Shown here: positions 4,695-64,000 of the stretch, one piece after another
Layout of the letters: each line of letters opens with the position of its first letter
Position numbering within the stretch: position 1 is the stretch's first letter
Source: a virus
Virus record (IMG/VR): IMGVR_UViG_3300036444_000030
Coordinates: 5,965 to 69,964 of that record
Direction: 5' to 3' (one strand)
DNA: 64,000 nt
Notes under the pieces: generated by a model
The model's database searches: none
Seen by the model: the letters and a program-made list of their open reading frames with translations, nothing else
What the model was told of the DNA's origin: nothing
Position numbers and translations under genes: made by a program

Positions 4695-4700
4695 ACCGCG

Positions 4701-5132: not shown

Positions 5133-5144
5133 CAGGAGGCTTCA

Positions 5145-9044: not shown

Positions 9045-9461
9045 ATGGATCAGTTGGAGACACTGATACTGCCGAGCGAGACCGTGAAAGTCGGGACCCA
9101 GTCCTTCGAAGTTTACGGTCTCGCCTTTGCGCATATCACCCGCATCATTCGTGAACATCGCAGCGTGTGTGCAGATCTTTACACCAAGGCTATCGCTGGC
9201 GAGCTGAGCGGAAGCGTCGAAGAGATTGCCTTGAGCATGACGGACGATTTCGCACCGCTTGCAGCAATGGTCATCGCTTACGGCTCGGGCAATCCTAACG
9301 CGGTCAACATGGCCGCGCGGTTGCCTCTAAGCGTTCAGGTCGATGCTCTCGAGAAGATTGTCAACCTCACCCTCGTCGCGGAGGGCGGCTTGGAAAAACT
9401 CATGGAGATCGTCGTTCGGGCGATAGCGGGCGCGGCAAGCCTGACATCCCCGAAAGCCTGA
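9045..9461 (+). CDS. Tail assembly chaperone (gpG-like)
   Basis: Between tail tube and tape measure genes; slippery heptamer near its 3' end. Confidence 0.8.
   Translation: MDQLETLILPSETVKVGTQSFEVYGLAFAHITRIIREHRSVCADLYTKAIAGELSGSVEEIALSMTDDFAPLAAMVIAYGSGNPNAVNMAARLPLSVQVDALEKIVNLTLVAEGGLEKLMEIVVRAIAGAASLTSPKA
9392..9398 (+). other. Programmed -1 frameshift site G-GAA-AAA giving a gpGT-like fusion that ends at 9727
   Basis: In-frame heptamer; the -1 frame is open from here into ORF 9500-9727. Confidence 0.75.
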
Positions 9462-9499
9462 CGGACTGGGTAGAGGGTGTCCATCGCCAGGTCAGTTTA

Positions 9500-9727
9500 T
9501 TGCTGGCCCACGGACACCCATCAGCCTGGTTCTATCCGGTCAGCAAGGTTTTTGTAGAGGCTCGCTTCGTGGTCGACAGGATCAACGCTCAAATGGCAAG
9601 CGAAGCAGCTCTTCTGCAAATGGCGATCTCCACAGTCCCAAATCAGAGCGTGAAGCCCGCCTCCACCAAGAAAGCCCTCAAGGCTTTCCAGTCGCAATTG
9701 AAGGTGCTGAACAATGGCGAGCCGTGA
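9500..9727 (+). CDS. gpT-like C-terminal part of the frameshifted chaperone
   Basis: No good start of its own; in the -1 frame of 9045-9461. Confidence 0.7.
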   Translation: MLAHGHPSAWFYPVSKVFVEARFVVDRINAQMASEAALLQMAISTVPNQSVKPASTKKALKAFQSQLKVLNNGEP

Positions 9728-12700
9728 AAGAGTCGTCGAATTTGCCGTCAAGGCTCGCGATGAATATTCGAAAGTTCTCAGGAATCTCGAGCAGCAGCAG
9801 AAGCGCCTTTCAGCTTCGGCTGCTGCTCAGGGCCGTAGAGCCGTCGTCGGTGTTGCTAAAGGTGAGATCGAGACCGCTGTCGCGAATTACAGGCGTCTCA
9901 ACAGCGAAGTTGATCGTTATCGCGCAGTCCAGGCCAATGCTGCCCGCACGGGCTCGTTGTCTGCGGCGGAAATGCGAGAACTGGGCGACACAATCAAACT
10001 GGTGCGTGACCGTTCTCGTGAAGCCATGGGCGCGTTGCAACAGAAGCGCGCGGCTCTCCAGCAAATCAACGGCGAGGCTCGTGTAGGCTTCGCGAGTTTC
10101 AGCCGGCTTGCGACAGAGATGCAGCGCGGTGCTGTGGCGTCCACGAACGAGAGCGTTTCGCTCGTCAACACCACAGCAGAACTGAACAAGCTAACCACGG
10201 CGTCGAAGAAAGCTGCCGCCGCGCAGGGTTCGCTCGGTGACCGGATGGATTCCGTAGCCAACGCGGGCGGTGGAGCCAAGAAGGGTTCCCGAGCAGGCGG
10301 CGATCCCGAAGATATTTTGGTCTATGGTTTGCGCCCGTGGCAGTTGACGAACCTTGGTTATCAGGTGAACGACGTTGTGTCGGGTCTCGCCATGGGTCAG
10401 GCGCCATTGCAGGTACTGGCACAGCAGGCCGGTCAGTTCGCGCAGATCTGGCCAAACGTCATGGTCAGCGTTGCTCGCTCTATCCCGCAGCTCGCAATGC
10501 TTGGCGTTGTTCTGGCCCCGTTCATCTCTGCGGCGATGCGCCTGAAGGAAGCCGGCGACTCTGTCGAATATTTCCAGAAGAAGCTCGCACTCTCAGCCGA
10601 TGGCTATCGTTACACCGCTGAGGGGCTCACGGAAATCACCGACAAGATCAAGGATATGGGGGTCTCGATCGACGACGCCCGTTCGCTGGTTGCCGGCTTT
10701 GCTTCCGACGGCATTTCCGGTGGCCGGTTCGCAGGTCTCGCGGACCTTGCCAAGAACCTCGATGCTGTGACCGGTGAAGGGGTTGTCGAAGCTGGCAGGA
10801 GGGTTTCCGCCGCGTTCAGAGGCTCGGTTGACGACGTCCGAGCGTTGGATCAGGAACTGAACTTCCTTACTGCTTCGCAATATGAGCAGATCAAGGCGAT
10901 GGATGCGAGCGGAAATCGCGCAGGCGCTTTGGCCATGGCGCAGGATGTCCTTCGCACCAAACTCGAGGGAACGAAGACAGAGGCAAGCGACTGGGCGAAA
11001 GCGATCAATGAGATGCGCGCCGCGTGGGATGAACTTGTCGGTGCGCTTGAGGACAGCGGCATCATTCAATTCGTGACGCGTGAGATTAACTATTTCGGTC
11101 GCGATGTGAAAAACTTCACCCGCGATATCCGAGCCGCGACCAAAGTTGTGCAGGGAGCCTTCGAAGACCAGAGCGTCGGTGACCGTATTTCTGAACTGCG
11201 GCAGGCCATCGCACTGGAAGAGAAGCTTCGGGAGGGAGGCATTTCGACCGGTTCGATGGGTATGACCGGGGTCGATAATCTCGCCGAAATGAAGACGGAG
11301 CTAAACGACCTGCTCGGCCTTCAGCGGGAAATCGCCAAGGTTGAGCGTGAGCGCAATGTCGAAACTGCTGCAATGAGCAGGGAATCGGAAGCACAGCGAA
11401 AGGCTCAGACGGATATCAATGCTGCCGTTGAAAAGGGTCTCGACAGTATGCGCGAGGAGGCCTCTGCGGTTACCCTCACCAACCGTGAGCGCTTTATTGA
11501 AGAAAAGCTGCTGAAGGCGCGCAACGACGCACTGGAACAGGCGAAAAAGCTCAATCAGGAATTCCTCGGCCTCACAAAGGAGCAAACCGAGGCCATCCGC
11601 CAGCAGGCCGGCGCGCTCTATGATGCGCAGAACCGGAACTTCGAGGCGCAGTACACGGCGGAGCGAGGCACGCCGCAAGGCCGGCAGATGGAGGAACTGA
11701 TTGCGGCGACCGTCAAGCTTGCCGAGCAGATGGGCGTCAGCGCGAAAGATTTGCTCACCGCTATGTCCTACGAGACAGGCGGAACCTTCGACCCATGGAA
11801 AGCGGGCCCCACGACGCAGAACGGTCAGCACCGCGGTTTGATCCAGTGGGGTGAACCTCAGGCCGCCAGATATGGAGTGACTGGTGAATCCACAATCTCG
11901 CAGCAGATCGAGGCGGTCGGAAAATATCTGGCAGATGCCGGCGTGAAAGCTGGTGATGGCTTGCTGCAGATTTATGCGGCCATCAATGCGGGCAATGCGA
12001 AAAACATCAATGCCTCGGACGCCAAGAACGGCGGCGCGCCTGGTACAGTCCTCGACAAGGTCTCCGAGCAGATGGGCGGTCACGAGGCGAGGGCGCAAGG
12101 GCTGCTCGCAGCGTATGCGGGAACCGTCGAACACGCGACCAAACTTGCACAGTTTGACAAGGATCGGGCGCTCGATCAGCAGGAGTATCTTACCGATTAT
12201 CAGAAGCGCGTCGAGCAGCAGAAGTTCGAACTCGACCTGATGTCCAAGTCCGCCCGCGAGGCTGCTATTCTCAAAGCCGTTCGTGATGAGGAGAACCGGG
12301 CACGGGAAACTGGACTTCAACTGACGAAAGAGCAACGCGCTGAAACGGAGCGACTGGCTGCGGAAGAATTTGACCGGAGCAACGTCAATCGCGAAGTGAA
12401 CGAACTTCTCGAACAGCGTTCCTTGTTGCTTGAGCGCATGGATCTTGCGCAATCGAGCGGCGACCAATCGCTATTCGCGTCGACGGCTACCGAACTGGAT
12501 AACGTGAACACGAAGCTCAACGAGGCTATCGCCTCCGCCATTGCCTTCTGGCAGGCGATGGGTGGCGAGGGTGCAGCCAACGCTATTAGTCAGTTGCAGA
12601 ACATGCAGATTACGATCGGTCAGTCGACCGATCGCATGAAAACGCAATTCCTCCCAACAGCGGAAGACATTAACGAAAAGCTCGCCGACATTGGTGGCAA

Positions 12701-21769: not shown

Positions 21770-22102
21770 ATGAAGAAAGTTGTCGATGGAAAAACGGTTG
21801 CGATGACATCGGATGAAATTGCCGAACTGCGCTCTTATACACCGATAGAAATCGCACCTGTCACGGTGGTATACAGCGTCGACTTCTGGACCCGCCTAGA
21901 TGGCGGCGCGGATGGCAACAGCGGCGAAGTCGCGCAGGTTCTCGCCGCCATGGAGCAGCAACCAATCCGCATTCGCAAAATCTTCGAAACCGCGAATTCG
22001 TACCGCAGTGACCACGAGATGTGGCCGCTCCTGGTGCAGATCGCTACCACGCTTTTCGGCGCAGACCGCGCAGCCGAGATCCTCGCGCCTTCCATCCCCT
22101 GA
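21770..22102 (+). CDS. Putative tail fibre chaperone
   Basis: Directly follows the fibre gene. Confidence 0.6.
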   Translation: MKKVVDGKTVAMTSDEIAELRSYTPIEIAPVTVVYSVDFWTRLDGGADGNSGEVAQVLAAMEQQPIRIRKIFETANSYRSDHEMWPLLVQIATTLFGADRAAEILAPSIP

Positions 22103-22120
22103 GACTCCTGAGAGATAAAC

Positions 22121-22318
22121 ATGGCTTCCTACATCGACTCATTGAAACGACAGAACACCTTCCTGCAGTCGGAAATCGAGCGTCATGCGAACGCGTGCGA
22201 TGCTCTTGCGTCCGAACTGGAACTGGCGAGCCGCCAGCGCGACGCGCTTCAAAAGCAGCTCGAAGACATGCTGAACGATCAGACGGAGCTTCCTTTTGAT
22301 GCTCAAAATTCCTCATAA
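22121..22318 (+). CDS. Small coiled-coil hypothetical protein
   Basis: RBS GAGAG; heptad pattern. Confidence 0.6.
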   Translation: MASYIDSLKRQNTFLQSEIERHANACDALASELELASRQRDALQKQLEDMLNDQTELPFDAQNSS

Positions 22319-22385
22319 AAGTTGTAATTTAGGGTGATGTTGTGTATTTCTCATCGGGTCCACTTCCGTTCCCGAGGATTAATCC

Positions 22386-23381
22386 ATGACAGCAGTGTCC
22401 GTCTCTCAGGTCCGCGCCGCAGCAAAGGGGCGCGTTGACGAAAGCAACCTGAATTCTGTCATGATGGCGCTGTCGAAATACGGCCCAAGTGCCGGTTTGG
22501 ACCTTCCACACCGAACGGTTCCCTACCTTTCCCAGTTGATGCATGAAAGCGGATCGTTCCGCTATGACCGCGAGATTTGGGGCCCGACGCCGGCACAGGA
22601 GCGCTACGACACCCGAACGGACCTCGGCAACACGCCACAGAAGGACGGCGACGGCTACAAGAACCGTGGTCGCGGCCCGATCCAGGTGACCGGAGCCCGC
22701 AACATCCGCGCGTTCTACCAGTGGTGCAAGCGGAAGGGCTTCAACCCGCCCGACTTCGTGAAGAACCCCGACCTGATCAATACCGATCCGTGGGAAGGGC
22801 TTTCGGCGATCTGGTACTGGGACGAAGGTAACCCCGACGGCAAGAGCCTCAATCGCTACGCAGATCGTAACGATCCCGAAATGATCACCCGCCGCATCAA
22901 CGGCGGCCTGAACGGCTTCGCGGATCGCCTCGACTATTACACGCGCCTCGGCCTTGTCGTGCTCGGGTTCAAAGTCACCGATATCATCGGCCTGCAGAAC
23001 GCCGGGCAGAAGACGGGCCACTACAAGGGCAAGCTTGACGGCCTCGACGGTCCGCAGACGCGTGCTGCCATCCACCTGATGCTCGTCGACCTGTCGCCGA
23101 AGTCGGAGGTTGTGCAGGTCAAAGCGGCTCCCGTCGTCGAGGAAAAGCCGGTTCCGGTCACACCGCCGAGCCTTGATGCGCCGTGGTGGAAGTCGAAGGA
23201 AGTCATCGTGCCTGTTGTAACAGGCAGCGGTCTCTCTTCTGTTTTGGCAGCGGTCGGCTCGATGCCGTGGCAGAACCTCGCGCTGATCCTCCTCGCGTTC
23301 GGGCTTGCTGGCGCTTTCCTGCTCTGGCGCAAGAAGTCGGATGCCAAAGTTGTATCTGAACAGGTGCGGGGGATGGCGTGA
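22386..23381 (+). CDS. Endolysin: GH19-like lysozyme domain, peptidoglycan-binding segment and C-terminal membrane helices
   Basis: QLMHESGSF, RGRGPIQVTG..N, ITRRINGGLNG..DR, LDGLDGPQT motifs; hydrophobic C-terminus. Confidence 0.9.
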   Translation: MTAVSVSQVRAAAKGRVDESNLNSVMMALSKYGPSAGLDLPHRTVPYLSQLMHESGSFRYDREIWGPTPAQERYDTRTDLGNTPQKDGDGYKNRGRGPIQVTGARNIRAFYQWCKRKGFNPPDFVKNPDLINTDPWEGLSAIWYWDEGNPDGKSLNRYADRNDPEMITRRINGGLNGFADRLDYYTRLGLVVLGFKVTDIIGLQNAGQKTGHYKGKLDGLDGPQTRAAIHLMLVDLSPKSEVVQVKAAPVVEEKPVPVTPPSLDAPWWKSKEVIVPVVTGSGLSSVLAAVGSMPWQNLALILLAFGLAGAFLLWRKKSDAKVVSEQVRGMA

Positions 23382-23674
23382 TGGCGGAAGTCAGAACTGC
23401 TCCGGTTACGGCCACCTACTGCGAAGATATCGAGGATGTGAAGGCCACCGCAGGTGCTTTCGAGTTCTTCGTCGATCGCGATCAGAAGATCGCAGGACTG
23501 GTTTACTCCTGCCCGTGCGGGTGCGGCCGAACCGGAGCGCTGAATTTCCGACCGCATCCGTCGCCTTCGTGGCAGTGGAATGGCGATCGTGAAAAGCCGA
23601 CCCTGACGCCGAGCGTCCACCATGTCGGCCACTGGCATGGCTTTCTCACTGACGGCGTTTGGAGATCGTGCTGA
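23378..23674 (+). CDS. DUF6527-like Cys/His protein
   Basis: CPCGCG...PTLTPSV...WHGFLTDGVW motif. Confidence 0.75.
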   Translation: MMAEVRTAPVTATYCEDIEDVKATAGAFEFFVDRDQKIAGLVYSCPCGCGRTGALNFRPHPSPSWQWNGDREKPTLTPSVHHVGHWHGFLTDGVWRSC

Positions 23675-23925
23675 TGTTCGGACTCACCGACTATTTCAAA
23701 CTGGGCATCGGTGCCGTCGTAGGCGCAGCGTTGATGGTTGTCCCGGCTTGCTCTTACGGTTCATTCCGCGAACGGGAAAATGCCAAGCTCGAGGCTGCAA
23801 AAGAGGCTCTCAACCGCATCACCAAACTGGAGAAAAACGATGCTTCGTTCCGCAAGCTTTCGTCTCGCGAGCGTTGTCTTGCTTTCATGCGTGACAGCAA
23901 GTTGCCAGACAGCAACTGCGATTAA
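23674..23925 (+). CDS. Inner-membrane spanin (Rz-like)
   Basis: N-terminal membrane helix, coiled coil, Cys near the C-terminus. Confidence 0.7.
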   Translation: MFGLTDYFKLGIGAVVGAALMVVPACSYGSFRERENAKLEAAKEALNRITKLEKNDASFRKLSSRERCLAFMRDSKLPDSNCD

Positions 23926-24058
23926 TGGAAGCGGGTATCAGCACATCGGCTTTTCCGATCCAGAGGCAGCACGTCTCGCGTCGCAGGATCCGACGGCCGG
24001 CCCCGCTATCTACTCCAACAACCGCCAGTGCAGCCAAGACGCTGCCTGCCGCAAATAA
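23840..24058 (+). CDS. Outer-membrane lipoprotein spanin (Rz1-like)
   Basis: Overlaps the Rz-like gene in another frame; lipobox-like VTASC. Confidence 0.7.
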   Translation: MLRSASFRLASVVLLSCVTASCQTATAINGSGYQHIGFSDPEAARLASQDPTAGPAIYSNNRQCSQDAACRK

Positions 24059-24074
24059 GGGCAGGGGAGTGAAC

Positions 24075-24527
24075 ATGGAACCTGGTTATCATGGCACCGG
24101 GATGTGGGTGAGAATTCAACATCGCTTCGGGCCACGGATGATGGAGTGGTTCATGGCAGGCCACTTGATTGCCTTCGGGTGGGTCCTGTTGCTTCCGTCG
24201 CAAACCTTCAACCAGCCGGCTTTCATGGGCTTCAATGAGATTGTCCCGTCAGAGAATTTCCTTGGCTGGATCATGTTCGTTATCGGCTGCCTCCGTATCA
24301 TCGGTTTGGTGATTAACGGAGCCAGAAAGACCGTCACACCGCAGATCCGGCAGATTTCAGCCGGAGCCGGTTGTCTAGTTTGGGCTGGCATCGCATACGC
24401 TTTTGCATCTTCCGGGGTCATCAGTACGTGGATCGCCATCTATCCGCTCTTCGCTGTAGGAGAGCTGGTCAACATCCATCGTGCAGCGCATGACCAGGGA
24501 GAGGTTCCCAATGGAAAGATTGGCTGA
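24075..24527 (+). CDS. Multi-pass membrane protein (holin-like)
   Basis: About four hydrophobic segments; in the lysis cassette. Confidence 0.6.
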   Translation: MEPGYHGTGMWVRIQHRFGPRMMEWFMAGHLIAFGWVLLLPSQTFNQPAFMGFNEIVPSENFLGWIMFVIGCLRIIGLVINGARKTVTPQIRQISAGAGCLVWAGIAYAFASSGVISTWIAIYPLFAVGELVNIHRAAHDQGEVPNGKIG

Positions 24528-24840
24528 GCTTCCTCCGCTCGCTCTCGTCGTCTTTGGCGCTACGCTGGCGATCATTTTCGCCGTGCGTCATCTAGGCATT
24601 CTTGCCGGCGCGAAAGCTACTCCCGAGAAATCTCAGGCCGCAGCGCAGGTTGCTGCGGTTATCGTCGATCCCACCGCGCTTAACAACGCGACGAAAGCGC
24701 TCGAGGCGCACACCGACGCAATCACGGACATGACTGAAGTAATGAAAGAAGCCGGCCGCCACTGGGGCCACATGGCAACTGAGATGGATCGCATTCGCGA
24801 AGAGTTGCGAATTCACCGGGAACTGGCACGCCGCACGTAG
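24511..24840 (+). CDS. Membrane-anchored coiled-coil lysis protein (holin/antiholin-like)
   Basis: One N-terminal membrane helix; RBS GGAGAGG. Confidence 0.55.
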   Translation: MERLAELPPLALVVFGATLAIIFAVRHLGILAGAKATPEKSQAAAQVAAVIVDPTALNNATKALEAHTDAITDMTEVMKEAGRHWGHMATEMDRIREELRIHRELARRT

Positions 24841-24928
24841 GTCACGCTCAGATATCCGATTTTCCTAAATGCGCTTCACACATTTCGGTTCGATGCTGTA
24901 AACAGGCATTTCGAATTCCAGAAAACCT

Positions 24929-25618
24929 GTGCAGGACGTGACATTGGCCGAAAAGACCGGATTGTTCATCAGCTTCGAAGGCGGCGAAGGCGCCGGCAAG
25001 TCGACGCAGATTCGCATGCTTGCAGAGGCGCTTCGCGGCCGTGGTTTCGAGGTGGTCGTGACGCGTGAGCCGGGTGGCTCGCCGGGTGCGGAGGCTGTCC
25101 GGCATGTGATCCTGTCGGGTGCGGCCGAATCCTTCGGCGTGCGCATGGAAGCGATCCTGTTTGCGGCTGCCCGCAACGACCATGTCGAAGAGGTCATTCG
25201 CCCGGCGCTCGCGCGCGGCGAGATCGTGCTCTGCGACCGGTTTCTCGATTCTTCTCGCGTTTATCAGGGCACGACCGGCAATCTGGAGCCGGAATTCATC
25301 GAAACCCTGCAACGCATCGCGATTGACGGCGTCGTGCCCGAACTGACACTGATTTTCGATATCGCCGCCCAAAAGGGGCTCGCCCGCGCCAGAAAGCGTG
25401 CGGATGAGGGTGCTGCGCCTGATCGGTTCGAGAAAGAGGAAATCGAAACCCACGAGAAGCGGCGGGAAGCCTATCTGGATATTGCGCTCGCCGAACCGCG
25501 TCGCTGCCGAATTGTCAATGCCGACCAGCCGGAAGGAAAGGTGGCGGAGGATGTCCTGTCCTTCGTCGAGCCTTTGCTTGAACAGCTGGGAACAGCAGCG
25601 GGCGCGGCGCATGAGTGA
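24929..25618 (+). CDS. tmk: Thymidylate (dTMP) kinase, host type (start may be GTG 24938)
   Basis: [16 protein letters not shown]-loop, [24 protein letters not shown]. Confidence 0.97.
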
Positions 25619-26636
25619 GGTTCAGGGCGTTCTCGACGGCGCGATTGCACCGCAGCAGAACACGAAGCTTTTTGGCCATGACGAGGCGGAAGCGTTTCTC
25701 ACGCAATCCTATCGCTCCGGCAAGGGCCATCACGCCATTCTGATCGAGGGGCCGGAGGGGATCGGCAAGGCGACGCTTGCCTTCCGTTTTGCCAATCATG
25801 TGCTCAGCCATCCCGATCCGTTGCTGGCGCCGGATTTTCTTGCCGATCCCGATCCGCAATCGCTGGTCAGCCGGCAGATCACCGCAGGCGCCTCGCATAA
25901 TCTCCTGCATCTCACCCGTCCGGTGGACGAAAAGACCGGCCGCGTGAAATCAGCCATCACCGTGGATGAGGTGCGGCGGGCAGGGCACTTCTTCTCGCAG
26001 ACCTCGGGCACCGGCAACTGGCGCATCGTCATCATCGATCCCGCCGACGATCTCAACCGCAATGCCGCGAATGCGATCCTCAAAATACTGGAGGAACCGC
26101 CAAAGCGGGCGATGTTCCTCGTCCTGTCGCACGCGCCGGGAAAATTGCTGCCGACCATCCGCTCGCGCTGCATGCCGCTCAGGCTCCTGCCGCTTTCCGA
26201 CGCGGCCATGGTGCAATCGCTCGATCATCTCGGCATCAGCCCATCCGGTGAAAAACGAGATGCCCTGCTTGCCGCCTCCAAGGGCAGCGTCGCGCAGGCG
26301 CTCAAGCTGCTGAATTACGGCGGCTCGGACATCGTCGAGGCCTTTGCCGAGGTCATGGGAGCCGAAGGGCCGGGCGCGCGCAAGCAGATGCACAAGCTTG
26401 CCGAGATTCTCGCGCAGAAGGACGGCGACATCGTCCTCGGCTTCTTCATGGAGCATGTGACGGAAGAGCTGATGGAGCGCGCAAGAGCGGCGGCGATGGC
26501 GGGCGATATCGCGGCGGCGGAAAAGCATGCGCGGCTTTCCTCGGCGCTTTCGGAACGCATCAGCGTGGCACAGGCCTATAATCTCGACAAGAAGCAGATG
26601 GTGCTTTCCATTCTGGAAGATATTCGCGGCATGTGA
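25611..26636 (+). CDS. holB: DNA polymerase III subunit delta-prime, host type
   Basis: [40 protein letters not shown]; the canonical tmk-holB pair. Confidence 0.97.
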
Positions 26637-26711
26637 GGCCGGGCGCAACGCCTTCTCCGCCGCCGCTCCGGTGTAACGAAGAGTCAATGTTTCTGGCGCA
26701 GGCTCTCGCCA

Positions 26712-27770
26712 ATGACGAAAACGCCACGCTCTCGATCCAAACCTCTCCTCCGCAACGACGTGAAGCCAGTCGCGTCGCGTCCGATCCGCAAGCGTAACAA
26801 GTCGCAGCCGGCATTGCCGCTCGATCCGATGCCAGGGCGTGTCGACCCCGCTCTTGCGCTGCTGAAACAGAAGCCGCCTCGCGGTGACAAGTGGGGATGG
26901 GAGATCAAGTGGGACGGGTATCGTCTGGCGGTTCACAATGAACCCGGTGGCGTCAGGATATTTACGCGAGGCGGCTACGACTGGGCGGTCAGGTTCCCCG
27001 CGATTGCCGAAGCGGCTAAGGATTTGGGCCCGGCATCATTCATAATCGACGGTGAAGGCGTCGTCCTTGACGAACAGGGACGCTCGGACTTCAACGCGTT
27101 GCAGAACAACCTCGGTGCTTCGGGTGCTCGGAGTGGGGGCAAGAACGCAGACCATGCGATCCTTTACGCGTTTGATATTCTCTATCTTGACGGCAAAGAC
27201 CTTCGTGACGAGCCTTACAGCGTGCGGCGGCATCTGCTCGAAGAGATGTTGCAAGGCTACGAGGGAGCGATCCGGATTTCCGAAGAATTGCTCGATGTTG
27301 ATCCCTCCGACCTTTTACGCCATGCGTGCGGCCATGGGTTGGAAGGGATTGTCGGCAAAGATCGCACGGCCGCCTACCGCAGCGGCCGAACCGGCGACTG
27401 GGTGAAACTGAAATGCGTTCAGTCGGAAGCCTTCTTTATAGTTGGCTACGAACCGGACTCTTTAGGCGGTTTCTCATCCTTGCTGCTGGCTGGTTACGAT
27501 GGAGATGACCTGCGCTATGTCGGTAGTGTTGGCACCGGATTCAAAGCCCGAAGTGCCGCGGAGTTGCAAAAACTGATGGGGAAACTTCCGTGGCGAAAGA
27601 AAACGCCTCCGGTATCGTACAGCGGCCGACGGAAAGTCGTTTGGTTGCAACCCACTTTAATTGCCGAAATCGAATTCCGCCAAATAACGCCGGACAAAAA
27701 GCTTCGGCATGCTGCCTACAAGGGCCTGCGCGAGCGTCAGGATAACGCTGACGTGTATCGGCTAGACTAG
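26712..27770 (+). CDS. ATP-dependent DNA ligase (LigD ligase-domain type)
   Basis: EIKWDGYR, DGEGVV, AFDILYLDG, EGIVGK, YRSGR..DWVKLK, KLRHAAYKGLR. Confidence 0.95.
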   Translation: MTKTPRSRSKPLLRNDVKPVASRPIRKRNKSQPALPLDPMPGRVDPALALLKQKPPRGDKWGWEIKWDGYRLAVHNEPGGVRIFTRGGYDWAVRFPAIAEAAKDLGPASFIIDGEGVVLDEQGRSDFNALQNNLGASGARSGGKNADHAILYAFDILYLDGKDLRDEPYSVRRHLLEEMLQGYEGAIRISEELLDVDPSDLLRHACGHGLEGIVGKDRTAAYRSGRTGDWVKLKCVQSEAFFIVGYEPDSLGGFSSLLLAGYDGDDLRYVGSVGTGFKARSAAELQKLMGKLPWRKKTPPVSYSGRRKVVWLQPTLIAEIEFRQITPDKKLRHAAYKGLRERQDNADVYRLD

Positions 27771-28027
27771 CACAGGGCCTCGGCCATAGCCTGGGCAAAG
27801 CCGATCTCAACACCTTCCCATTTGCCGGCTTCGACCTGCGCTTGTAACACGCGAGAAAGGTGGAGCGGATTTTCCGTAGCCATCATCACAGAATGAAGCT
27901 GCGTGAAATATAAGCGACCAGCGTCGCAGTCAGCCTGATAATCGTTGGTGCGAACCGGCGTCCATGGATGCAGCCGGCCTGCGTTTGAGACGACAAAAGG
28001 AAGCTGTTCAAAACTCATTACATTCAT
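27767..28027 (-). CDS. Hypothetical protein, probably SOS-regulated
   Basis: 86 aa, RBS GAGTGGA, LexA box upstream. Confidence 0.65.
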   Translation of the reverse strand: MNVMSFEQLPFVVSNAGRLHPWTPVRTNDYQADCDAGRLYFTQLHSVMMATENPLHLSRVLQAQVEAGKWEGVEIGFAQAMAEALC

Positions 28028-28037
28028 TGTTCCACTC

Positions 28038-29378
28038 TCACATTAAGTCGCTCAGGTCGACGTTTTCACCGATCAAATCTGACAAGTAGGAATTTAATCC
28101 TTTTCTTTTAGGATGTGAACATACCGTGAACAAGTTTTCATCAAGTAGTTCATCTGAAAGCAACATTTTTTGGTTGCAATCGTTAATCTCTGGAAACCTG
28201 CGTCCTAAAAATTCGACGTATTCAGTTTCGGCTTCCATGAGAATGCAGTCAAACCCCTCGCGCCGAGCTGCCTCAGCGGTTGTTCCGGAGCCGGCAAATG
28301 GATCGAGCACGATGCCGCCCGGTGGCGTGATGTGCCGGATCAAATTCTGCATCAGGGCGATGGGTTTTACGGTGGGGTGGCTGCTGCCAGCGCGATCTGC
28401 TTTGCCCGCTTTCCCATTGTAGATGAGAGCAGCACCGCGGTCTTCGCCGATGACACCCACGGCTATCGCATGCGCGTAATCTTCGTCGCTAAGTGGAAAC
28501 TGGTGAAAGAAACGAGCAGCAGAACCTTCATCATTGAAGAACGTGCCGGGAGTCCGACCGTTGAACTTGCCGTAAATGTCCTTAGTCACACCTGATGGCT
28601 CGGTCCCTTTATCTGGCGCCGCAGCACCAGCTTTTGCCGGGAACATCGCGACAACTTCCGGTGAACCGTCGAGGATCAGGTTGGCGGGATGACGACCGTT
28701 CACACGACAACCATCTATGTTTACAGCTCCAACACCATGCATCTGCAGGTTTGCAGCGCCATTCTTTTCAGTGAATGGTTTCTGCCCAAGGAAAACCGGC
28801 TCGAGTGCAGGTTTCTGCGACTGGGTTCCGTAACCCCAACCCACCCAAGGATCACCTTCTTCGCAAGAGTCGCAAACGTGATCATCTGGTCGAGGATCGC
28901 TTGGAAGGGCGGACTCATAATGACGGCCCGGGCGGTCACATCTATGCGCGTCGATCGCTCTTTCGGCATTGCTGGCCTTCGGAAAACCCGAGCCAAAGCA
29001 CCAACCGTGCATCGGGTGCATGATGAAGCCGGCCATCTCCATGGCGCAGGCCTGCCAGTGACCGGTGCGGCTCCCGCTGAAAGCGAAGACATAGCCGCCC
29101 GGTAACAAGATGTCGTAAATCAGCTTCCAGAACTCGGGATCACGCTCGATACCTGTTCCATCCCACGCGCGGCCCATGAAGCCGCCAGACAGGCGCGCGA
29201 AGCTCCCATCGTTCTTCTCACGACGGGCAGGGGCCGAACCTTCCTTGCCGAAACGCTTCTGGATCGAAACCAGTCCATACGGTGGGTCTGTCACAACAGA
29301 ATGGACGCGCACGCCCTGTGCAATCAGGCGTCGTAACGAGGCGCGGTTGTCGCCGGGATGCAGCGTGATGTTCGTCAT
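28038..29378 (-). CDS. Orphan DNA amino-methyltransferase (N6A/N4C, beta class)
   Basis: VTDPPY precedes HPTVKP...VLDPFAGSGTT. Confidence 0.92.
   Translation of the reverse strand: MTNITLHPGDNRASLRRLIAQGVRVHSVVTDPPYGLVSIQKRFGKEGSAPARREKNDGSFARLSGGFMGRAWDGTGIERDPEFWKLIYDILLPGGYVFAFSGSRTGHWQACAMEMAGFIMHPMHGWCFGSGFPKASNAERAIDAHRCDRPGRHYESALPSDPRPDDHVCDSCEEGDPWVGWGYGTQSQKPALEPVFLGQKPFTEKNGAANLQMHGVGAVNIDGCRVNGRHPANLILDGSPEVVAMFPAKAGAAAPDKGTEPSGVTKDIYGKFNGRTPGTFFNDEGSAARFFHQFPLSDEDYAHAIAVGVIGEDRGAALIYNGKAGKADRAGSSHPTVKPIALMQNLIRHITPPGGIVLDPFAGSGTTAEAARREGFDCILMEAETEYVEFLGRRFPEINDCNQKMLLSDELLDENLFTVCSHPKRKGLNSYLSDLIGENVDLSDLM
28117..28131 (-). promoter_or_regulatory. Alphaproteobacterial LexA box overlapping a leftward promoter
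   Basis: GAAC-ATACCGT-GAAC; on the minus strand TTGTTC-17 nt-TAAAAG. Confidence 0.65.
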
Positions 29379-29388
29379 AGGAATACTT

Positions 29389-29640
29389 TCAGACCAGAAG
29401 ATCGTCGGATGTGTCGGTTGGCGCTTTGTTTCGCAGAACCTGAAGCAGGACGTGGCGCAACTTCTCCGAAGGCGCGGACTCGGGCACAAGAGCGTCGACA
29501 ACGAAGCTGCTGTGATCGCGGCCCATGCTGACCATATTGCCGCCGCCGCTCATTTTGCCGTTGAAAATGCGGATCGAGTGCCATTCGCCGTTGGACATGG
29601 CGAGATCGATCAGTTCTTCGAGAGACATATCTTCGATCAT
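29389..29640 (-). CDS. Hypothetical protein ending SDDLLV
   Basis: Coupled ORF in the leftward operon. Confidence 0.7.
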   Translation of the reverse strand: MIEDMSLEELIDLAMSNGEWHSIRIFNGKMSGGGNMVSMGRDHSSFVVDALVPESAPSEKLRHVLLQVLRNKAPTDTSDDLLV

Positions 29641-30577: not shown

Positions 30578-31213
30578 CTACGTGGCCATAGCGTATTCCA
30601 TTGTAGAAAGCATCGCGAACTCGTCGGATGCTTCCTCGTCGCCTGCAAGGCCACCGTCGATGAACGATTTGGCGGATTGGAAGTGTGCAGGTTTTTGCCC
30701 GAGATCCTCCAATTTCGCCGACAGTGCCCCAGCGGTAAAGCATTGAGCTTCTGCGATAACCACATCTGTCAACGTTGGTAGACGAGAATGCTTTGCTTCT
30801 GTGTAAGGCTCCACGCCTTCCGGGTACTTCTCAAACATCTCGTCAACAACGCGCTGAAGTTCGGTACGAATCGCTTCCAGATTGGCTTTCGGCGGACGGT
30901 CGTCGTTCAACTGCTGCTGGATCATCGCGTCGCGCAGAACCACGAGGCTGCTGATCGCTTTGGTGATGTGGGAGAGTTGGCTATCGGCATCGATGTCTTC
31001 GCCTTCCCACCACTGCATGATGTGACCCGTTGCAGCGTCGACGTAGACCGATGCCTTGACGCCGGAAACCCGGTAGTTGTGCCGGCCGTATTTCGCCGCG
31101 CCTTCCAGCATAGCGATGCCGACTTCGGCCATGACAGTCATTGGAATAGTGGCAAACTGGCGCCATTTCTTGATACCGATGCCGTCCTTGGGGTTCGTTT
31201 CCTTCGTGCTCAT
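30578..31213 (-). CDS. dATP/dGTP diphosphohydrolase-domain protein (DUF5664-like)
   Basis: NPKD..G..K, GAAKYGRHNYR, WWEGEDIDADSQLSH motifs. Confidence 0.85.
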   Translation of the reverse strand: MSTKETNPKDGIGIKKWRQFATIPMTVMAEVGIAMLEGAAKYGRHNYRVSGVKASVYVDAATGHIMQWWEGEDIDADSQLSHITKAISSLVVLRDAMIQQQLNDDRPPKANLEAIRTELQRVVDEMFEKYPEGVEPYTEAKHSRLPTLTDVVIAEAQCFTAGALSAKLEDLGQKPAHFQSAKSFIDGGLAGDEEASDEFAMLSTMEYAMAT

Positions 31214-31422
31214 GAGCAGGCCTCCGCAACCATTGCCTCGCGGACGCGATCGTAGGCTTCCCACACACTCTCGTTGTGCACCGGCTGGACGTTGTGCTCA
31301 ACACCATCGCGCATGCGTACGGTAACGTGCCCGGAGCTATAGTAGCACTGGATGCTCTGGACGTAACGGGGATTGACGCTGGTGGTTTTCGTAATCTCGA
31401 CGAGCGCCATGGAAATCACCAC
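31210..31422 (-). CDS. Small hypothetical protein
   Basis: Fills the gap between coupled genes. Confidence 0.6.
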   Translation of the reverse strand: MVISMALVEITKTTSVNPRYVQSIQCYYSSGHVTVRMRDGVEHNVQPVHNESVWEAYDRVREAMVAEACS

Positions 31423-31955
31423 TTCTTGCCGTTTGCAGCAAGCCTGGCTTCATTCTTGTGATCGGCGCGGACGGCATTGTAAGCTCGCTTTTCAGCAACG
31501 GCGCCGTCGACATCGTAGCCGAACTTGGCAGCGTAAGCATCGATCGTAGCAAGGACGCGCGTGATCTCGATGCCGACACGAACGTGCCAGTTCGACTCGA
31601 TCAGATTGCCGATCCCTGTAATGAGGCGGGTAATTGCAAACAGCGCTTCGGCGCGATTGTCGGTCAGGTCGATCGCAAGCCCTTCCGGATTGACGAGCCT
31701 GTATCCGCAGCCGCCAGCAAAATCGAAGAGCCTGATCTTGGCGTCAGCCAGTTCGACTTCCGCCATCTTGCGATTGGGCAGGTGGTCATCCATCAGGTCT
31801 TTCCGCTCGCCTTCCATGGCTTCGGAAAGTTCGCTGACAACGAGCATCAGCATTTCGCCCTTGTTCCGATTGAGGCGCTCGCCTGTCGCCGGGTCACGCC
31901 ACCAGTGGGCATTGGAGGCATGGATTGCGGCAGCGAGGGTGTTTAAGTCTGTCAT
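31416..31955 (-). CDS. MazG-like NTP pyrophosphohydrolase
   Basis: LVVSELSEAMEGERK...EVELADAKIRLFD...EKRAYN motif. Confidence 0.85.
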   Translation of the reverse strand: MTDLNTLAAAIHASNAHWWRDPATGERLNRNKGEMLMLVVSELSEAMEGERKDLMDDHLPNRKMAEVELADAKIRLFDFAGGCGYRLVNPEGLAIDLTDNRAEALFAITRLITGIGNLIESNWHVRVGIEITRVLATIDAYAAKFGYDVDGAVAEKRAYNAVRADHKNEARLAANGKKW

Positions 31956-32137
31956 TTCCAGTTTCTCCTTCTTTTGCGCTTTGCCGTTTGGCGTCCGAGG
32001 TGGAAAAAGCCGCAGAATTTGCATTTGTAAGGTTCAGCCTTCGGATATCGCTTGCGCACCGAGGCTACGACTTTCGCGGCGAACCGCTCTTTCCCCTGAC
32101 ACGCCGACTCCCAGTCTTCATCTTCACTTACATTCAT
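31952..32137 (-). CDS. Small Zn-binding basic protein
   Basis: C.GK.RF...YKCKFCGFFH motif. Confidence 0.65.
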   Translation of the reverse strand: MNVSEDEDWESACQGKERFAAKVVASVRKRYPKAEPYKCKFCGFFHLGRQTAKRKRRRNWK

Positions 32138-32159
32138 ATTTCCACCTTAAAAGTGAAAG

Positions 32160-32759
32160 TCAAGATAAAAGTGAAACGATTGGCCGCAGATCGTCTATCC
32201 ACGTGACCAAGGGATCGCCGGGCGTCTCGTGGGATCGATTGTGTGATCGTCGAACCATAAAAGACTTGTGGCCGCAATCGTGACCGGAGACGGCGTGGTT
32301 GTAGTTGTCTTCGATCCAGACACCGCGCTCGAGGATACCGAGCCACTTCTTTTTGCTTTCGCCGAGCGGCAGGCAAATCACCTGTTCGAAGATGTCGCCG
32401 AATATCAGATCGAGGTTGAGCTTCCGCCTGGCGACGATGAGGGGGTTGTCCGAGCAACTGGTCAACACTGTCAGCCTGTGGCCCATCTCCTTGAGCGCTG
32501 TGACGTTCTCTACGGCATGCGGGCATGCTTCGAGATACTGGAACTGGGAGCTGTGATTGAAGCCGACGACCATCTCGCGCGACGCTGCCGGCGTCAGGCC
32601 GAGCCATCCGCTCATGTCCCACGAATCCGGCAATCCTTCGATAGGACGGTTCTCGACGGCTGAAACAAACCGTCTGAACGCGCCGAGCCAGTCTAAGAGC
32701 ACGTCGTCGCAATCGAGGATGATGTGAAGGTTTCGGTTCTGGCGATGGAAGTCGATCAT
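32160..32759 (-). CDS. HAD-family 5'(3')-deoxyribonucleotidase-like protein
   Basis: ILDCDDVLLDW, LTS and WIEDN HAD motifs. Confidence 0.85.
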   Translation of the reverse strand: MIDFHRQNRNLHIILDCDDVLLDWLGAFRRFVSAVENRPIEGLPDSWDMSGWLGLTPAASREMVVGFNHSSQFQYLEACPHAVENVTALKEMGHRLTVLTSCSDNPLIVARRKLNLDLIFGDIFEQVICLPLGESKKKWLGILERGVWIEDNYNHAVSGHDCGHKSFMVRRSHNRSHETPGDPLVTWIDDLRPIVSLLS

Positions 32760-33682
32760 GCCTGCAACTCCAGTTGACGGCGGCGCTGGCGGAAGCCGAC
32801 GAAGTTGCCGTGTTCTTCGCTGTGCTTCCAGCAGGCGGCGGTTTTGAATGCCGGTCGCTCGAAATGATAAGCCAGGTCTTCGAATTCATCAGCCTGCGCG
32901 ACGTGCTCGAACGGGCTGGCATGGAATGGTTTTGTGTGCAGCTTGTCGTAGATCGCGACGGCGCGGTCGAAGGTCATATCGAAGCCGTCGGTGGTTTTAT
33001 AGGACGTGCTGGCGCAGCGGGCGACGGAGAGTTTTTGCAGGATCTCGACGCCGATGTTGTGATCCCCACCACTTGCCTCATAGAGGAGATCTTCGTCGAA
33101 GCTGGTGATGAACGGCAGATGCCATTTACCAGGATTAAGCGTCTGCACCGTCGACTCGTCTTCAAGGCACTTCCGGATTTCGCGAGCGAGCATCTGGATA
33201 TGCGGCTCGGCGTCCTTGTGGTCGCGCAATTCGAGGAAGTTGTCCCATTCCGTCGACGACACGAGCACAGTGATATGGAGGAACGGTTCGAGCAGGCGGT
33301 TGATGACCTGCTTGTGGTAGCCGGCTGCTTCGAAGGCACGGGCAATACGGATCGCTTCATCACGTGCCCATAGCCATGCCCGTTCGCGCGAAACGCCTCC
33401 CGGCACAATGAGACGCAATCGTGCATCACATTCCTGGTCAGCCTGCATACCCTTCTGCGCCGCTCCCCAATGGATGGGCATGGCGGTGTCGGCGAGGATG
33501 TCGTCGATCATTTTCTTCACGGGGATAGCGCGACTGCTGGCAGCATTCCGGCTGAACACGCGATGAGTGAGGAATTCGGCATGGATGAACCGAGGGTAGC
33601 GCAAGAGAAGCGTCGAGAGCACCTTGTCAGGCGCACTGGCATTACGTGATCGCAGAATAGTCTTGGCGGAGATGGTGGTCAT
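32756..33682 (-). CDS. thyX: FAD-dependent thymidylate synthase, phage type
   Basis: AEFLTHRVFSRNAASSRAIP, HKQ..NRLLEPF, HASPFEH. Confidence 0.9.
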   Translation of the reverse strand: MTTISAKTILRSRNASAPDKVLSTLLLRYPRFIHAEFLTHRVFSRNAASSRAIPVKKMIDDILADTAMPIHWGAAQKGMQADQECDARLRLIVPGGVSRERAWLWARDEAIRIARAFEAAGYHKQVINRLLEPFLHITVLVSSTEWDNFLELRDHKDAEPHIQMLAREIRKCLEDESTVQTLNPGKWHLPFITSFDEDLLYEASGGDHNIGVEILQKLSVARCASTSYKTTDGFDMTFDRAVAIYDKLHTKPFHASPFEHVAQADEFEDLAYHFERPAFKTAACWKHSEEHGNFVGFRQRRRQLELQA

Positions 33683-41376: not shown

Positions 41377-41790
41377 TCATCGTATGCTCCGCACCGGTCT
41401 GAGGTTGCGGCCGGTCGCCCCGCGCTTGGCGGGATAGCTGCGGATTGCATGACGAACGGTGGTATGGTCACGACTGCCGAGGTAGGCGCCGATCTCGACA
41501 AGGCTCGACGTGGTTCTGCGGACCATCCAATAGCAGCAGGCCTGCCGCACGAGGACGACGTGCCTTTGCATGCGGTCGCTCGTTATCAGGTCGGCAGAAA
41601 GCCCTGTACGCCTGCAGAACAGTGCGAGGATGCGTTCCTTCGTCGTCATCAGGCGCGTAGGCTCGACGACGGGTGCGGCCAACTTCGGTTTCGCGGCTAT
41701 GTTGACGACCTTGGGTGCGCCGTAGATGCGCCGACGGACATCGGCATAGCGCGCCAGCAGCTCCTCGGCTGTTTTTGGTTCAGGGCTCAT
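41377..41790 (-). CDS. DnaA C-terminal (domain IV-like) HTH protein
   Basis: RQACCY...SLVEIGAYLGSRDHTTVRHA. Confidence 0.88.
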   Translation of the reverse strand: MSPEPKTAEELLARYADVRRRIYGAPKVVNIAAKPKLAAPVVEPTRLMTTKERILALFCRRTGLSADLITSDRMQRHVVLVRQACCYWMVRRTTSSLVEIGAYLGSRDHTTVRHAIRSYPAKRGATGRNLRPVRSIR

Positions 41791-44546: not shown

Positions 44547-44576
44547 AGCCCGGCCTTTGAAGCCGGGCTTTTCTTT
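44547..44576. terminator. Terminator between convergent units
   Basis: AAGCCCGGC-CTTTGAA-GCCGGGCTT followed by TTCTTT. Confidence 0.75.
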
Positions 44577-49188: not shown

Positions 49189-49216
49189 ATCTCGAATTCC
49201 TCTTAAAACGTGAAAA

Positions 49217-62520: not shown

Positions 62521-62610
62521 GTCCCGATACGTCTCAATACATCAACTGAGAACGTGGTATAATTTTGTGGTTCTGCAATTGTAACCAATTGTTTTCAAAC
62601 GAAATTAGGT

Positions 62611-62627
62611 TCCCTCCGGGCCCACCA
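62611..62627 (+). other. att core: duplicated tRNA 3' end TCCCTCCGGGCCCACCA
   Basis: T-arm 3' side, acceptor stem and CCA with no tRNA body upstream; from memory it matches the alphaproteobacterial CAT-anticodon (Ile2/Met) tRNA; sits at the phage/host boundary. Confidence 0.8.
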
Positions 62628-62784
62628 TTTTTCTCATATTTTAGACAAAATAGCGAGATTCCAGGCAGCGGATCCCTATTTTATCGATCATCGCCCTCTT
62701 CTGGATTTTTTGTTCCATCCAACAAAAATCCGACCAGCCGGTTAGGCTGATCGGATCATCTAGATTGAGTTTTCAGCTATCGGG

Positions 62785-63156
62785 TCAGTTACAAACCCGC
62801 ATACTCTCCGTATGCCAGCCGCCGTCATAAGAATTGGGAACGCGGCGGTCTTCGAACCAGCAGCGCGGCGGGGGCGGCGGTGGCGGTTCGTAGTAGCGGG
62901 GGCCGCCGTTGCCGTTGGCGATGGCGCCGCCGATCAGGCCGCCGATGACGCCTGCGGCGAGGCCGCCGGCAATCGCTGCGCCATCATTGTGGCGGCGATG
63001 TTCGCGGTAGGGCGGCGGAGGTGGGCCGCCACGGTCATAACCCCGGTCGTAGCGCGGGCGATAGGGATAGTCCTGCGCGGCAGCGGTGCCATAGGATGCA
63101 AAAATGCTGCCGGTGGCGACCAGCGCGGCAATAGTGGAAAGAATTATCTTTTTCAT
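62785..63156 (-). CDS. Host exported Pro/Gly-rich protein with glycine-zipper segment
   Basis: Signal peptide; GLAAGVIGGLIGGAIA; poly-Pro. Confidence 0.8.
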   Translation of the reverse strand: MKKIILSTIAALVATGSIFASYGTAAAQDYPYRPRYDRGYDRGGPPPPPYREHRRHNDGAAIAGGLAAGVIGGLIGGAIANGNGGPRYYEPPPPPPPRCWFEDRRVPNSYDGGWHTESMRVCN

Positions 63157-63316
63157 CGGGGGCTACTCCATAAGCCTGCTTCGGGAGATAGAGGCTCATT
63201 ATGCCCGGATGATGGCACGGGACGGGTGAACGGCCTGTGAATATCTCATTTTCAAGCGGTTCATATTTTCCTGATTTCCGACTGCAGGATCGCGGAAGAT
63301 GCACGCTTTCCGCAAT

Positions 63317-63346
63317 AAAAAAGCCCGGCGGACGGCCGGGCTTCTT
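63317..63346 (-). terminator. Intrinsic terminator after the outer membrane protein gene
   Basis: Minus strand AAGCCCGGC-CGTCC-GCCGGGCTT followed by a T run. Confidence 0.85.
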
Positions 63347-63367
63347 GTCGAAATCCTTCGGTCGCGA

Positions 63368-64000
63368 TCAGAACTTCACGCCGAGACCCACTTTCACAGT
63401 GTGCTGGTCGACATCGGTGTTGATACCGAAGATGTCCTTGTCGCTATAGTCGTTGTATCGATATTCCAGCCTGCCGAACACGTTGTCGGTGAAGGCATAG
63501 TCCAGACCCGCGCCGACGGTATAGCCGTTGAACGTGGTGCTGTCCTTGCCGGCTCCGGGCGTTTCGATGAAGCCGCGTGTCGCGGTCCAGCCAGCGGTGG
63601 CATAGAGCAGGGCGTGGTCGAAGGCATAGCCGACGCGGCCGCGAACGGAACCCTGCCAGTCGGTACCGATCTGCACGCCGGCATAGTCATTGTCGTTCCA
63701 GTTATAATCGACATCACCTTCGATGCCGAGCACCAGATTATTGTCGAACTGGTAATTGTAACCAACGAAGGCGCCGAGAATGCCGCCATCGAAATTATCC
63801 GAGGCGACCGGGCCGCCGGCCGAAAAATCGCCATTTGCCCAGCCCGCGCCGCCTTGAATACCAAGATAGGGGCCAGACCAGGTGAAGACCGGCAGGGTTT
63901 CCTGCGCGACCGGAGGTGCGGGCGTTTCGTAGACGGCATCCGCGGCCATTGCGGTGCTGGCCGACAGGGCCAGGAGTGACGTTACGATCAGCGTTTTCAT
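63368..64000 (-). CDS. Host outer membrane protein, Omp25/RopB family
   Basis: Signal peptide; FTWSGPYLG, GYNYQF, RGRVGYAFD, EYRY; terminal Phe. Confidence 0.93.
   Translation of the reverse strand: MKTLIVTSLLALSASTAMAADAVYETPAPPVAQETLPVFTWSGPYLGIQGGAGWANGDFSAGGPVASDNFDGGILGAFVGYNYQFDNNLVLGIEGDVDYNWNDNDYAGVQIGTDWQGSVRGRVGYAFDHALLYATAGWTATRGFIETPGAGKDSTTFNGYTVGAGLDYAFTDNVFGRLEYRYNDYSDKDIFGINTDVDQHTVKVGLGVKF

Follow-up and report, generated by a model that had tools for sequence, protein, structure and literature searches.

The window analysed here is the whole 64,000-nucleotide (nt) stretch of DNA that spans bases 5965-69964 of the 69,964-bp IMG/VR 'provirus' record IMGVR_UViG_3300036444_000030, and it contains, within the genome of a temperate Agrobacterium phage, two adjoining genes of host origin, tmk and holB. 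The first, at 24929..25618 on the plus strand, encodes a predicted dTMP kinase and begins at GTG 24929 (or GTG 24939), with its stop codon at 25616-25618. The second, at 25611..26636 on the same strand, encodes the delta-prime subunit of DNA polymerase III (Pol III) and extends from an ATG at 25611 to a stop codon at 26634-26636, overlapping tmk by 8 bp; the same 8-bp overlap is found in native chromosomal loci. An earlier note on this DNA, drawn from its letters alone, had offered two explanations for the arrangement, capture by the phage or an artefact of assembly, and it is capture that the comparisons below bear out.

Identity of tmk and holB

Against the TIGR00041 equivalog profile, Tmk scores 160 bits (cut-off 83.25) and covers profile positions 3-195 of 196, while its score against PF02223 is 144 bits. 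It also contains the motifs GGEGAGKST, close to the N-terminus, and, midway along the protein, CDRFLDS, which we take to be the P-loop and DR(F/Y) motifs typical of dTMP kinases. By profile and motif alike, then, Tmk has the predicted features of a dTMP kinase. HolB exceeds the cut-off of the delta-prime equivalog NF006586 (526.9 bits against 308) and scores 131.5 bits on PF13177, and its closest sequence match in the PDB is the E. coli delta-prime subunit (1a5t, 2.5e-15); judging from its position in the tree described below and from its overlap with tmk, it is an orthologue of chromosomal holB. Both genes are full length when compared with host orthologues, in agreement with the earlier note's description of them as intact. 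Tmk has 99.1 % amino acid (aa) identity to the native copy of Agrobacterium radiobacter, from which it differs at 2 of 228 residues, and 100 % to a second phage copy, that of contig L002, and HolB is 98.5 % identical to its A. radiobacter counterpart.

The segment also differs in composition from its surroundings, as the same note had remarked. Its G+C fraction is 0.62 in 25001-27000, compared with 0.52-0.60 in the adjacent kilobases, and third-position G+C is 0.76 in the long frame that holds holB (25398-26636) as against 0.63-0.65 in the flanking phage genes. The stretch of roughly 90 bp of non-coding DNA that had been seen upstream of tmk measures 88 bp (24841-24928).

Origin and limits of the fragment

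The source of the fragment was sought among species-representative genomes, where a scan with HolB returned at least 80 loci; the 29 closest, all from the Agrobacterium group (L018-L046), were compared with the window. Nucleotide homology to all 29 is confined to 24848-26642, and the fragment as a whole, at about 24848-26645, amounts to 1.8 kb of Agrobacterium chromosome. Its blastn identity is 97.4 % over 1775 nt with the native A. radiobacter DSM 30147 locus, 87-92 % with those of 12 further species in the A. tumefaciens complex and 75-81 % with the other 16 loci. A maximum-likelihood tree built from the coding region joins the two phage copies in a monophyletic pair (support 0.997) whose sister is the A. 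radiobacter copy (1.0), and the pair falls well within the A. tumefaciens complex. The fragment was thus donated by an A. radiobacter-like chromosome.

The native order in A. radiobacter is an rlpA-like gene, a DD-carboxypeptidase gene (dacC), tmk, holB, metG and tatD. The note had stated that a D-Ala-D-Ala carboxypeptidase gene and metG usually adjoin tmk-holB, and it was right both about this locus and about the absence of the two genes from the window. What the phage carries begins within the dacC-tmk intergenic region, of which the final ~85 bp are present, and continues through tmk and holB to about 10 bp beyond the holB stop. On the left, the captured upstream region of tmk (24841..24928, plus strand) shows host homology from ~24848, as delimited by junction alignment and blastn, that is, from a few bases past the TAG of the last phage ORF. 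It includes a block at ~24873-24915 that is conserved across Agrobacterium species and is presumably the native promoter of tmk. On the right, the junction and spacer occupy 26637..26711 (plus strand); in the alignments, host homology fades within ~10 bp of the holB stop, and from ~26680 the sequence matches the conserved leader of a ligase module found in other phages. A blastn search with 22000-29000 returned no cultivated phage record covering tmk-holB.

Junctions in independent data and the presence of a second copy

The same gene order and both junctions are present in an independent IMG/VR metagenome contig (L002/L013/L099). Over 24841-26711 this contig is 99.63 % identical to the window (7 differences), and its genes farther from the insert have diverged to 63-88 % aa identity, e.g., 68 % for the methylase, 68 % for a small lysis-region ORF and 88 % for the pyrophosphatase. 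When IMG/VR was scanned for the phage-type tmk leader, only the contigs of L002 and of a relative, L111, were retrieved.

At least part of the stretch occurs in 20 public runs from 16 studies. Four of these runs (X1, X4, X6 and X7), each from a different study, were examined as Logan contigs; X1 may be the source sample, despite differing from the window at three positions, the others are independent, and the classing of X7 as RNA is a guess. The left junction is bridged in all four, by contigs of 3075 nt in X1 (23800-26605), 5143 nt in X4, 1408 nt in X6 and 432 nt in X7, and the right junction in three, by contigs of 343 nt (X1), 2823 nt (X4) and 11,008 nt (X6), but not in X7. Junction-spanning sequence, which the earlier note had named as a check on capture, is accordingly available for both ends, and together with the L002 junctions and a deletion scar in L111 (see below) it establishes the capture as real.

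A second copy of tmk-holB, another of the proposed checks, was also found. In X4, a run from an isolate, the tmk-holB contigs branch at both ends, into phage flanks on the one hand and into native flanks identical to those of A. radiobacter on the other, with loose native-type ends before 24860 and after 26623. Depth is 15.5-15.9 in the shared part, 12.4 in the phage flanks and 8.5-9.3 in the native flanks, and a two-allele bubble lies at 25619-25763. Since X4 holds both types of junction, its genome carries two copies of tmk-holB, one native and one in the prophage. Native-type right junctions are present in X1 and X7 as well; X1 gave no native-type left contig, which at its depth of 5-7x is not interpretable. 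Nothing points to the prophage having become indispensable through loss of the native genes, as native-type junctions co-occur with it in X1, X4 and X7 and a near-complete relative is without both genes. No loss of the native copy was seen in these three runs or among the 29 Agrobacterium-group loci.

A variable slot in related phages

Two relatives, L100 and L111, retain the order of tail genes, lysis genes, a slot, a methylase gene and, farther on, ThyX-like and parB genes, and both are without tmk, holB and the ligase. The first belongs to G006, a 97 %-complete genome whose DNA polymerase is 96 % identical (aa) to that of the phage considered here and which has no match to Tmk or HolB; its slot (L100 8923-10605) contains a 463-aa ORF with a match to a tail-fibre PHROG plus an 87-aa ORF. 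The second, L111, belongs to G007, with a polymerase of 97 % aa identity, and its slot (9084-10972) encodes proteins of 520 and 109 aa with no Pfam or PHROG match. The place of the insert, which the earlier note had wished to see in related prophages, is therefore taken up in these relatives by other cargo and, in L111, also by a scar.

The scar lies directly past the stop of the last lysis-region ORF. It consists of the tmk leader (window 24855-24914, 88 % identity) joined to the last 60 nt of holB (26567-26626, 90 %), with about 1.65 kb deleted between them. The leader piece resembles the phage copies (88 %) more than it does any host (80-87 %), from which it follows that the scar descends from the same insertion, and that the insert is older than the split of these phages and was deleted later in one line. 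A similar stretch of L111 had been considered as microhomology at the left junction, a candidate that was dropped once the stretch proved to be a remnant of the same insert. Because G006 lacks both genes and L111 has deleted them, tmk-holB is dispensable cargo that has been both gained and lost. In keeping with accessory cargo, the segment is present in some syntenic relatives and absent from others at a fixed slot, and its composition is unlike that of the flanking phage genes.

For a wider view, the 200-aa phage protein encoded at 23925..24527 (plus strand; phrog_8980), a PHROG family that is kept in related prophages, served as an anchor, a relative of it being encoded at 25 viral loci. None of the 24 other contigs with a homologue carries tmk-holB and one carries the scar, many of them ending within ~2 kb past the lysis genes and being uninformative. 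Many related provirus records (L101-L123) end 0.3-2.6 kb after their homologues of this ORF and of the next one, orf24481, which puts the lysis block of those phages at the end of the prophage or of the contig. Mosaic boundaries seem to fall generally at the point where the lysis genes stop.

Divergence, selection and possible gene conversion

Relative to A. radiobacter, both frames are intact, with a dS of 0.075 and dN/dS of 0.12 for tmk and a dS of 0.063 and dN/dS of 0.14 for holB; mean host-host dN/dS over 78 pairs is 0.057 and 0.054, respectively. Only eight positions in 24875-26636 are specific to the phage copies (two in the leader, four synonymous and two replacement), so that polymorphism among hosts, rather than phage-branch change, accounts for most of the distance to A. 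radiobacter. The two phage copies are identical at all 682 positions of tmk and differ at four of 1026 in holB, altering three codons (T31A, H261Y and M341V), all of these numbers being small.

Run X4 differs from the window at 13 of 1753 positions in tmk-holB versus 2 of 2408 in the prophage flanks (Fisher p 0.0008), and at 11 of the 13, clustered in 25258-25889, it has the A. radiobacter state; the contigs compared are simplified graphs that can drop variants, and the comparison is not from phased reads. The L111 scar, for its part, has drifted by ~10 %, versus less than 0.5 % phage-specific change in the intact copies, a discrepancy for which repeated gene conversion by a resident native copy is one explanation, hinted at by these data. 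An extension of this idea, in which the prophage and chromosomal genes form a two-way conversion pair, with the phage shuttling alleles between Agrobacterium strains and its copy being refreshed in each host, is speculative and rather doubtful. If it were true, the 1.8 kb of homology could allow RecA-dependent integration or rearrangement at the native locus, and, were the native copy also lost, the prophage could be locked in place.

The phage around the insert

The left-hand part of the prophage has the order small and large terminase, portal, protease, capsid, tail, tape measure and tail tip, followed by the endolysin, small downstream ORFs, tmk-holB and a LigD-like ATP-dependent ligase. 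On the opposite strand beyond the ligase are genes for a methyltransferase, a PF18909 dATP/dGTP diphosphohydrolase-like protein, a MazG-like pyrophosphatase and a ThyX-family protein, and then parB, and the replication block comprises a PrimPol/VapE-type primase-helicase, a DUF2800 exonuclease, a Gp2.5-like annealing protein and a helicase. The early region also encodes a small protein with a DnaA C-terminal helix-turn-helix domain (41377-41790, minus strand; PF08299, 2e-15) and a HerA-like ATPase (44575-45762, minus strand; PF05872, 3e-72). The lowest G+C of the window, 0.47, falls at 51001-52000, just upstream of the primase-helicase gene, and this may be an origin or regulatory region.

The insert is flanked, as the earlier note had it, by the last gene of the lysis region and by the ligase gene. 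The lysis block opens with a glycoside hydrolase 19-like endolysin (22386..23381, plus strand; phrog_14712, 2e-137, and endolysin PHROGs 9506 and 181). Its final member, at 24481..24840 on the plus strand, is translated into a 119-aa protein with a hydrophobic N-terminus and no family match in Pfam or PHROG profile searches, and only its position suggests a lysis accessory role; the left junction adjoins its TAG stop (24838-24840), and the homologous ORFs of L100 and L111 terminate at the same point. The ligase gene (26712..27770, plus strand) encodes a LigD-like ligase domain (PF01068, PF04679 and TIGR02779, the last at 304 bits with a cut-off of 228). Homologues with 50-78 % aa identity, along with ~30 nt of the leader, are found in 13 other viral contigs (L004-L017), none of which has the lysis genes of this phage or tmk-holB, making them uninformative about the slot. 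One of them, L010, also has pyrophosphatase and dGTPase-like matches. Missing likewise from the syntenic relatives L100 and L111, the ligase gene is a separate mobile module. The right border of the variable slot is a DNA methyltransferase gene (28038..29501, minus strand; PF01555), homologues of which come directly after the slot in L100 and L111; in the present phage the slot thus houses the ligase gene as well as tmk-holB. In all, the prophage has three DNA methyltransferase-like genes, the other two being at 47263-49308 (minus strand) and 58301-59539 (plus strand).

The diphosphohydrolase-like, MazG-like (phrog_5658) and ThyX-family genes form a three-gene cluster at 30578-33682 on the minus strand, which may represent deoxynucleoside triphosphate (dNTP) pool editing or a base-modification pathway. 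The thymidylate-synthase-like member, at 32756..33682, matches phrog_85 (3.6e-71) and PF02511 (33.6 bits) and reaches 29 bits on the NCBIfam thyX equivalog, under the cut-off of 88. What had been called the phage ThyX is in consequence a divergent protein of that family, the family assignment standing and the equivalog one failing. The observation that no phage polymerase is visible is true of the window and wrong for the phage, since a DNA polymerase gene (phrog_1252, E 7e-169) lies at 1856-3895 of the record (L098, minus strand), ~2 kb upstream of the window start. With a polymerase of its own, the phage offers a weak argument for needing host Pol III. The product has no Pfam or NCBIfam match and a faint structure match to a family-B polymerase (1s5j, E 1e-4), and it is of a poorly characterised type.

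Integration site and route of capture

Toward its right end the window leaves the prophage. Alignment with the empty site of A. radiobacter DSM 30147 places attR, which is what remains of a tRNA-Met gene's 3' end and marks the prophage-chromosome boundary, at 62600..62627 (plus strand); the tRNA-Met gene is intact at the empty site (L132 1442-1517), and the shared core is ~17-27 nt. The host chromosome flank (62611..64000, plus strand) is 99 % identical to A. radiobacter DSM 30147 and includes an outer-membrane beta-barrel gene (63368-64000, minus strand). At its left end the record is still in phage sequence, so that attL and the integrase are outside it.

The insert is internal to the prophage, 36 kb from attR, and no phage genes have been lost. 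Transposition was rejected as the route, there being no repeat that pairs the two junctions and no transposase or integrase family among the ORFs scanned, which upholds the earlier note's report of no insertion-sequence ends, transposase or target duplication. Aberrant excision was rejected too, because on the reference chromosome the native tmk-holB (C1:1061806) is ~660 kb from the integration site (G001:C1:~399966). A variant of that route, starting from the tRNA-Ser gene situated 3.2 kb upstream of the A. radiobacter tmk (L018 5985-6074), was discarded as well, as rlpA and dacC are missing from the insert and the phage sits at tRNA-Met. Given the lack of transposon features and the distance between native locus and attachment site, illegitimate recombination is the route that is left over and by which capture presumably took place.

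At the same tRNA-Ser, a different provirus record (L003 4235-10501) has an integrase gene (4235-5470) beside tRNA-Ser(tga) (5640-5729), followed by rlpA, the DD-carboxypeptidase gene, tmk and holB. The tmk-holB of that record is a boundary overrun into native host genes and not a capture.

Proposed role and alternative explanations

The reading that is favoured, with a probability of roughly 0.55, is that a temperate Agrobacterium phage captured host tmk-holB, with tmk serving as a nucleotide-supply gene and holB coming along with it. The conversion of dTMP to dTDP by Tmk comes straight after thymidylate synthase. In the phage, Tmk would act directly after the ThyX-like step and beside two nucleotide pyrophosphohydrolases, and would raise the supply of dTTP during phage DNA synthesis. 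Since holB overlaps tmk, any event that took a working tmk with its 3' end would have taken holB too; it is predicted to be translationally coupled to tmk and is most likely neutral. The two genes share the strand of the late operon, and no terminator-like site was recognised at the left or right junction, so that they may be read through from the late genes as well as being expressed from the native upstream region that was kept. Within a lysogen, exchange of sequence with the native copy by gene conversion would keep the 1.8-kb duplicate host-like.

Several points weigh against this reading. Too little time may have passed since capture for the intact frames to be a sign of selection, and most of the low dN/dS is a legacy of the genes' history in the host. 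The loss of the genes in L111 and their absence from G006 mean that the phage does well without tmk. As the ThyX-like protein falls short of its equivalog cut-off, the link from ThyX to Tmk is weaker than it might appear. Expression of tmk-holB by the phage is putative, and no promoter match of the sigma-70 consensus type was found in 24300-27000. Some family-B polymerases use clamps, and holB may therefore have a role with the phage polymerase, given the faint family-B match of the latter, rather than being a bystander. The hint of gene conversion comes from simplified, unphased contigs. Lastly, exact-pattern scans of JGI metagenome contigs for the left and right junctions gave no matches, a result that says nothing about prevalence.

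The alternative that fares best, and that is quite possible even though it is not the explanation we would choose, is that the whole fragment is a neutral, accidental pick-up that has remained intact because it is young or has been repaired by gene conversion, and that is heading for deletion. The deletion scar of L111 and the absence from G006 agree with such a course, as do the small number of phage-specific substitutions, the fact that three of the four holB differences between phage copies change the protein and the pattern in X4, which fits conversion by the native copy. Speaking against it are the trimming of the fragment almost exactly to an expressible unit of upstream region, two ORFs and stop, its presence in phage variants whose other genes have diverged to 63-88 % aa identity, its recurrence in runs of several studies and the fit of tmk to the nucleotide-metabolism gene set of this phage.

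Benefit might instead accrue to the lysogen, the prophage copy acting as a second dose or backup of essential genes and, should the native copy decay, as an anti-curing 'addiction' device. Retention of the native upstream region and the coexistence of two copies in one isolate (X4) would suit this, and there is the precedent of an island-borne kinase that replaced tmk as the only dTMP kinase of Pseudomonas putida KT2440 (PMC10653934). Yet every run in which native-type junctions could be looked for (X1, X4 and X7) has them, and the native locus is intact at 29 of 29 Agrobacterium-group genome loci, with no native loss seen, which leaves this explanation improbable.

It is, if anything, a little less probable still that selection has acted on holB or on both genes, with an extra delta-prime subunit biasing or reinforcing the host clamp loader in favour of phage replication, or countering a factor that targets it. 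HolB is intact and of equivalog grade, clamp-loader families exist among the PHROGs (phrog_5846, 1.6e-27) and the phage polymerase, whose type is uncharacterised, matches family B faintly. Weighing on the other side, relatives with a 96-97 % identical polymerase are without holB, no clamp, gamma/tau or delta subunit is present among the scanned phage ORFs and the only aa changes between the two phage copies fall in holB; moreover, we know of no activity of delta-prime alone. Finally, a chimera of phage and chromosome arising from assembly or binning, at first sight suggested by the jump in composition and the essential-gene content, is scarcely credible: an independent viral contig shares the junctions, as do contigs from four runs, each of a different study, the decayed scar of a relative occupies this very site, and phage synteny extends to either side.

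Comparison with known systems

The known systems that come closest are phage morons and host-derived auxiliary metabolic genes, which sit in variable slots of temperate phages. Like them, tmk-holB is a compact and putatively expressible unit of foreign composition that lies between conserved modules, is present or absent in relatives and is dispensable to the life cycle. Unlike usual morons, it is a 97 % nt copy of two essential housekeeping genes from the very species that hosts the phage, it includes a replisome subunit and its exact donor locus can be named.

Phages also have thymidylate or deoxynucleoside monophosphate (dNMP) kinases of their own (PHROG 761 and 16057), one example being gp1 of T4. 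The captured Tmk would carry out the same step, in a phage that likewise has thymidylate-synthase-like and dNTP pyrophosphohydrolase genes, but those kinases represent old, diverged phage lineages and this one is a recent orthologous copy from the host. Among 50,697 phage records, the best tblastn matches of Tmk and HolB are 43 % and 31 % identical, respectively, several of the top matches being unannotated 'phage' contigs that may reflect host contamination.

With viral clamp-loader small subunits (phrog_5846 and phrog_168), HolB shares the AAA+ clamp-loader fold family. A familiar phage clamp loader is gp44/62 of T4. The viral subunits are diverged and work with viral clamps and partners, whereas the present one is a lone host delta-prime with neither a phage clamp nor other loader subunits. 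Divergent viral HolB/DnaX-like clusters have also been described (PMC12153180).

As in lambda gal/bio, a temperate phage here carries host chromosomal genes; in contrast to lambda gal/bio, the captured DNA is not from beside the attachment site (~660 kb away), is an internal segment of 1.8 kb and was gained with no loss of phage genes. The specialised transducing phages of lambda arise by aberrant excision.

A further parallel is P. putida KT2440, in which a prophage-like island disrupts tmk and supplies an essential, non-orthologous, T4-like dNMP kinase, holB being chromosomal (PMC10653934). Both cases involve a prophage-type element with a dTMP-kinase function, and KT2440 shows that such cargo can turn essential. 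They differ in that the Agrobacterium phage has left the native locus untouched, carries orthologous tmk together with holB and gives no sign of dependence. No report of tmk-holB in an Agrobacterium phage was found in the open-access literature searched; as phage gene capture, the taking of an essential pair is unusual, not unprecedented.

Significance

In the tmk-holB insert, the copying of an essential host operon by a temperate phage can be seen cleanly and can be dated. The donor locus and both breakpoints are known, and the intact insert can be set beside a form from before or without capture and a decayed one left by deletion. Essential genes for replication and nucleotide metabolism are not exempt from capture by phages, and lysogens can be merodiploid for them. 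This bears on essentiality screens, on core-gene phylogenies of the A. tumefaciens complex and on those provirus-boundary and contamination calls that use such genes as host markers. If the indications of gene conversion are true, the phage would in addition be a vehicle for the exchange of core-gene alleles.

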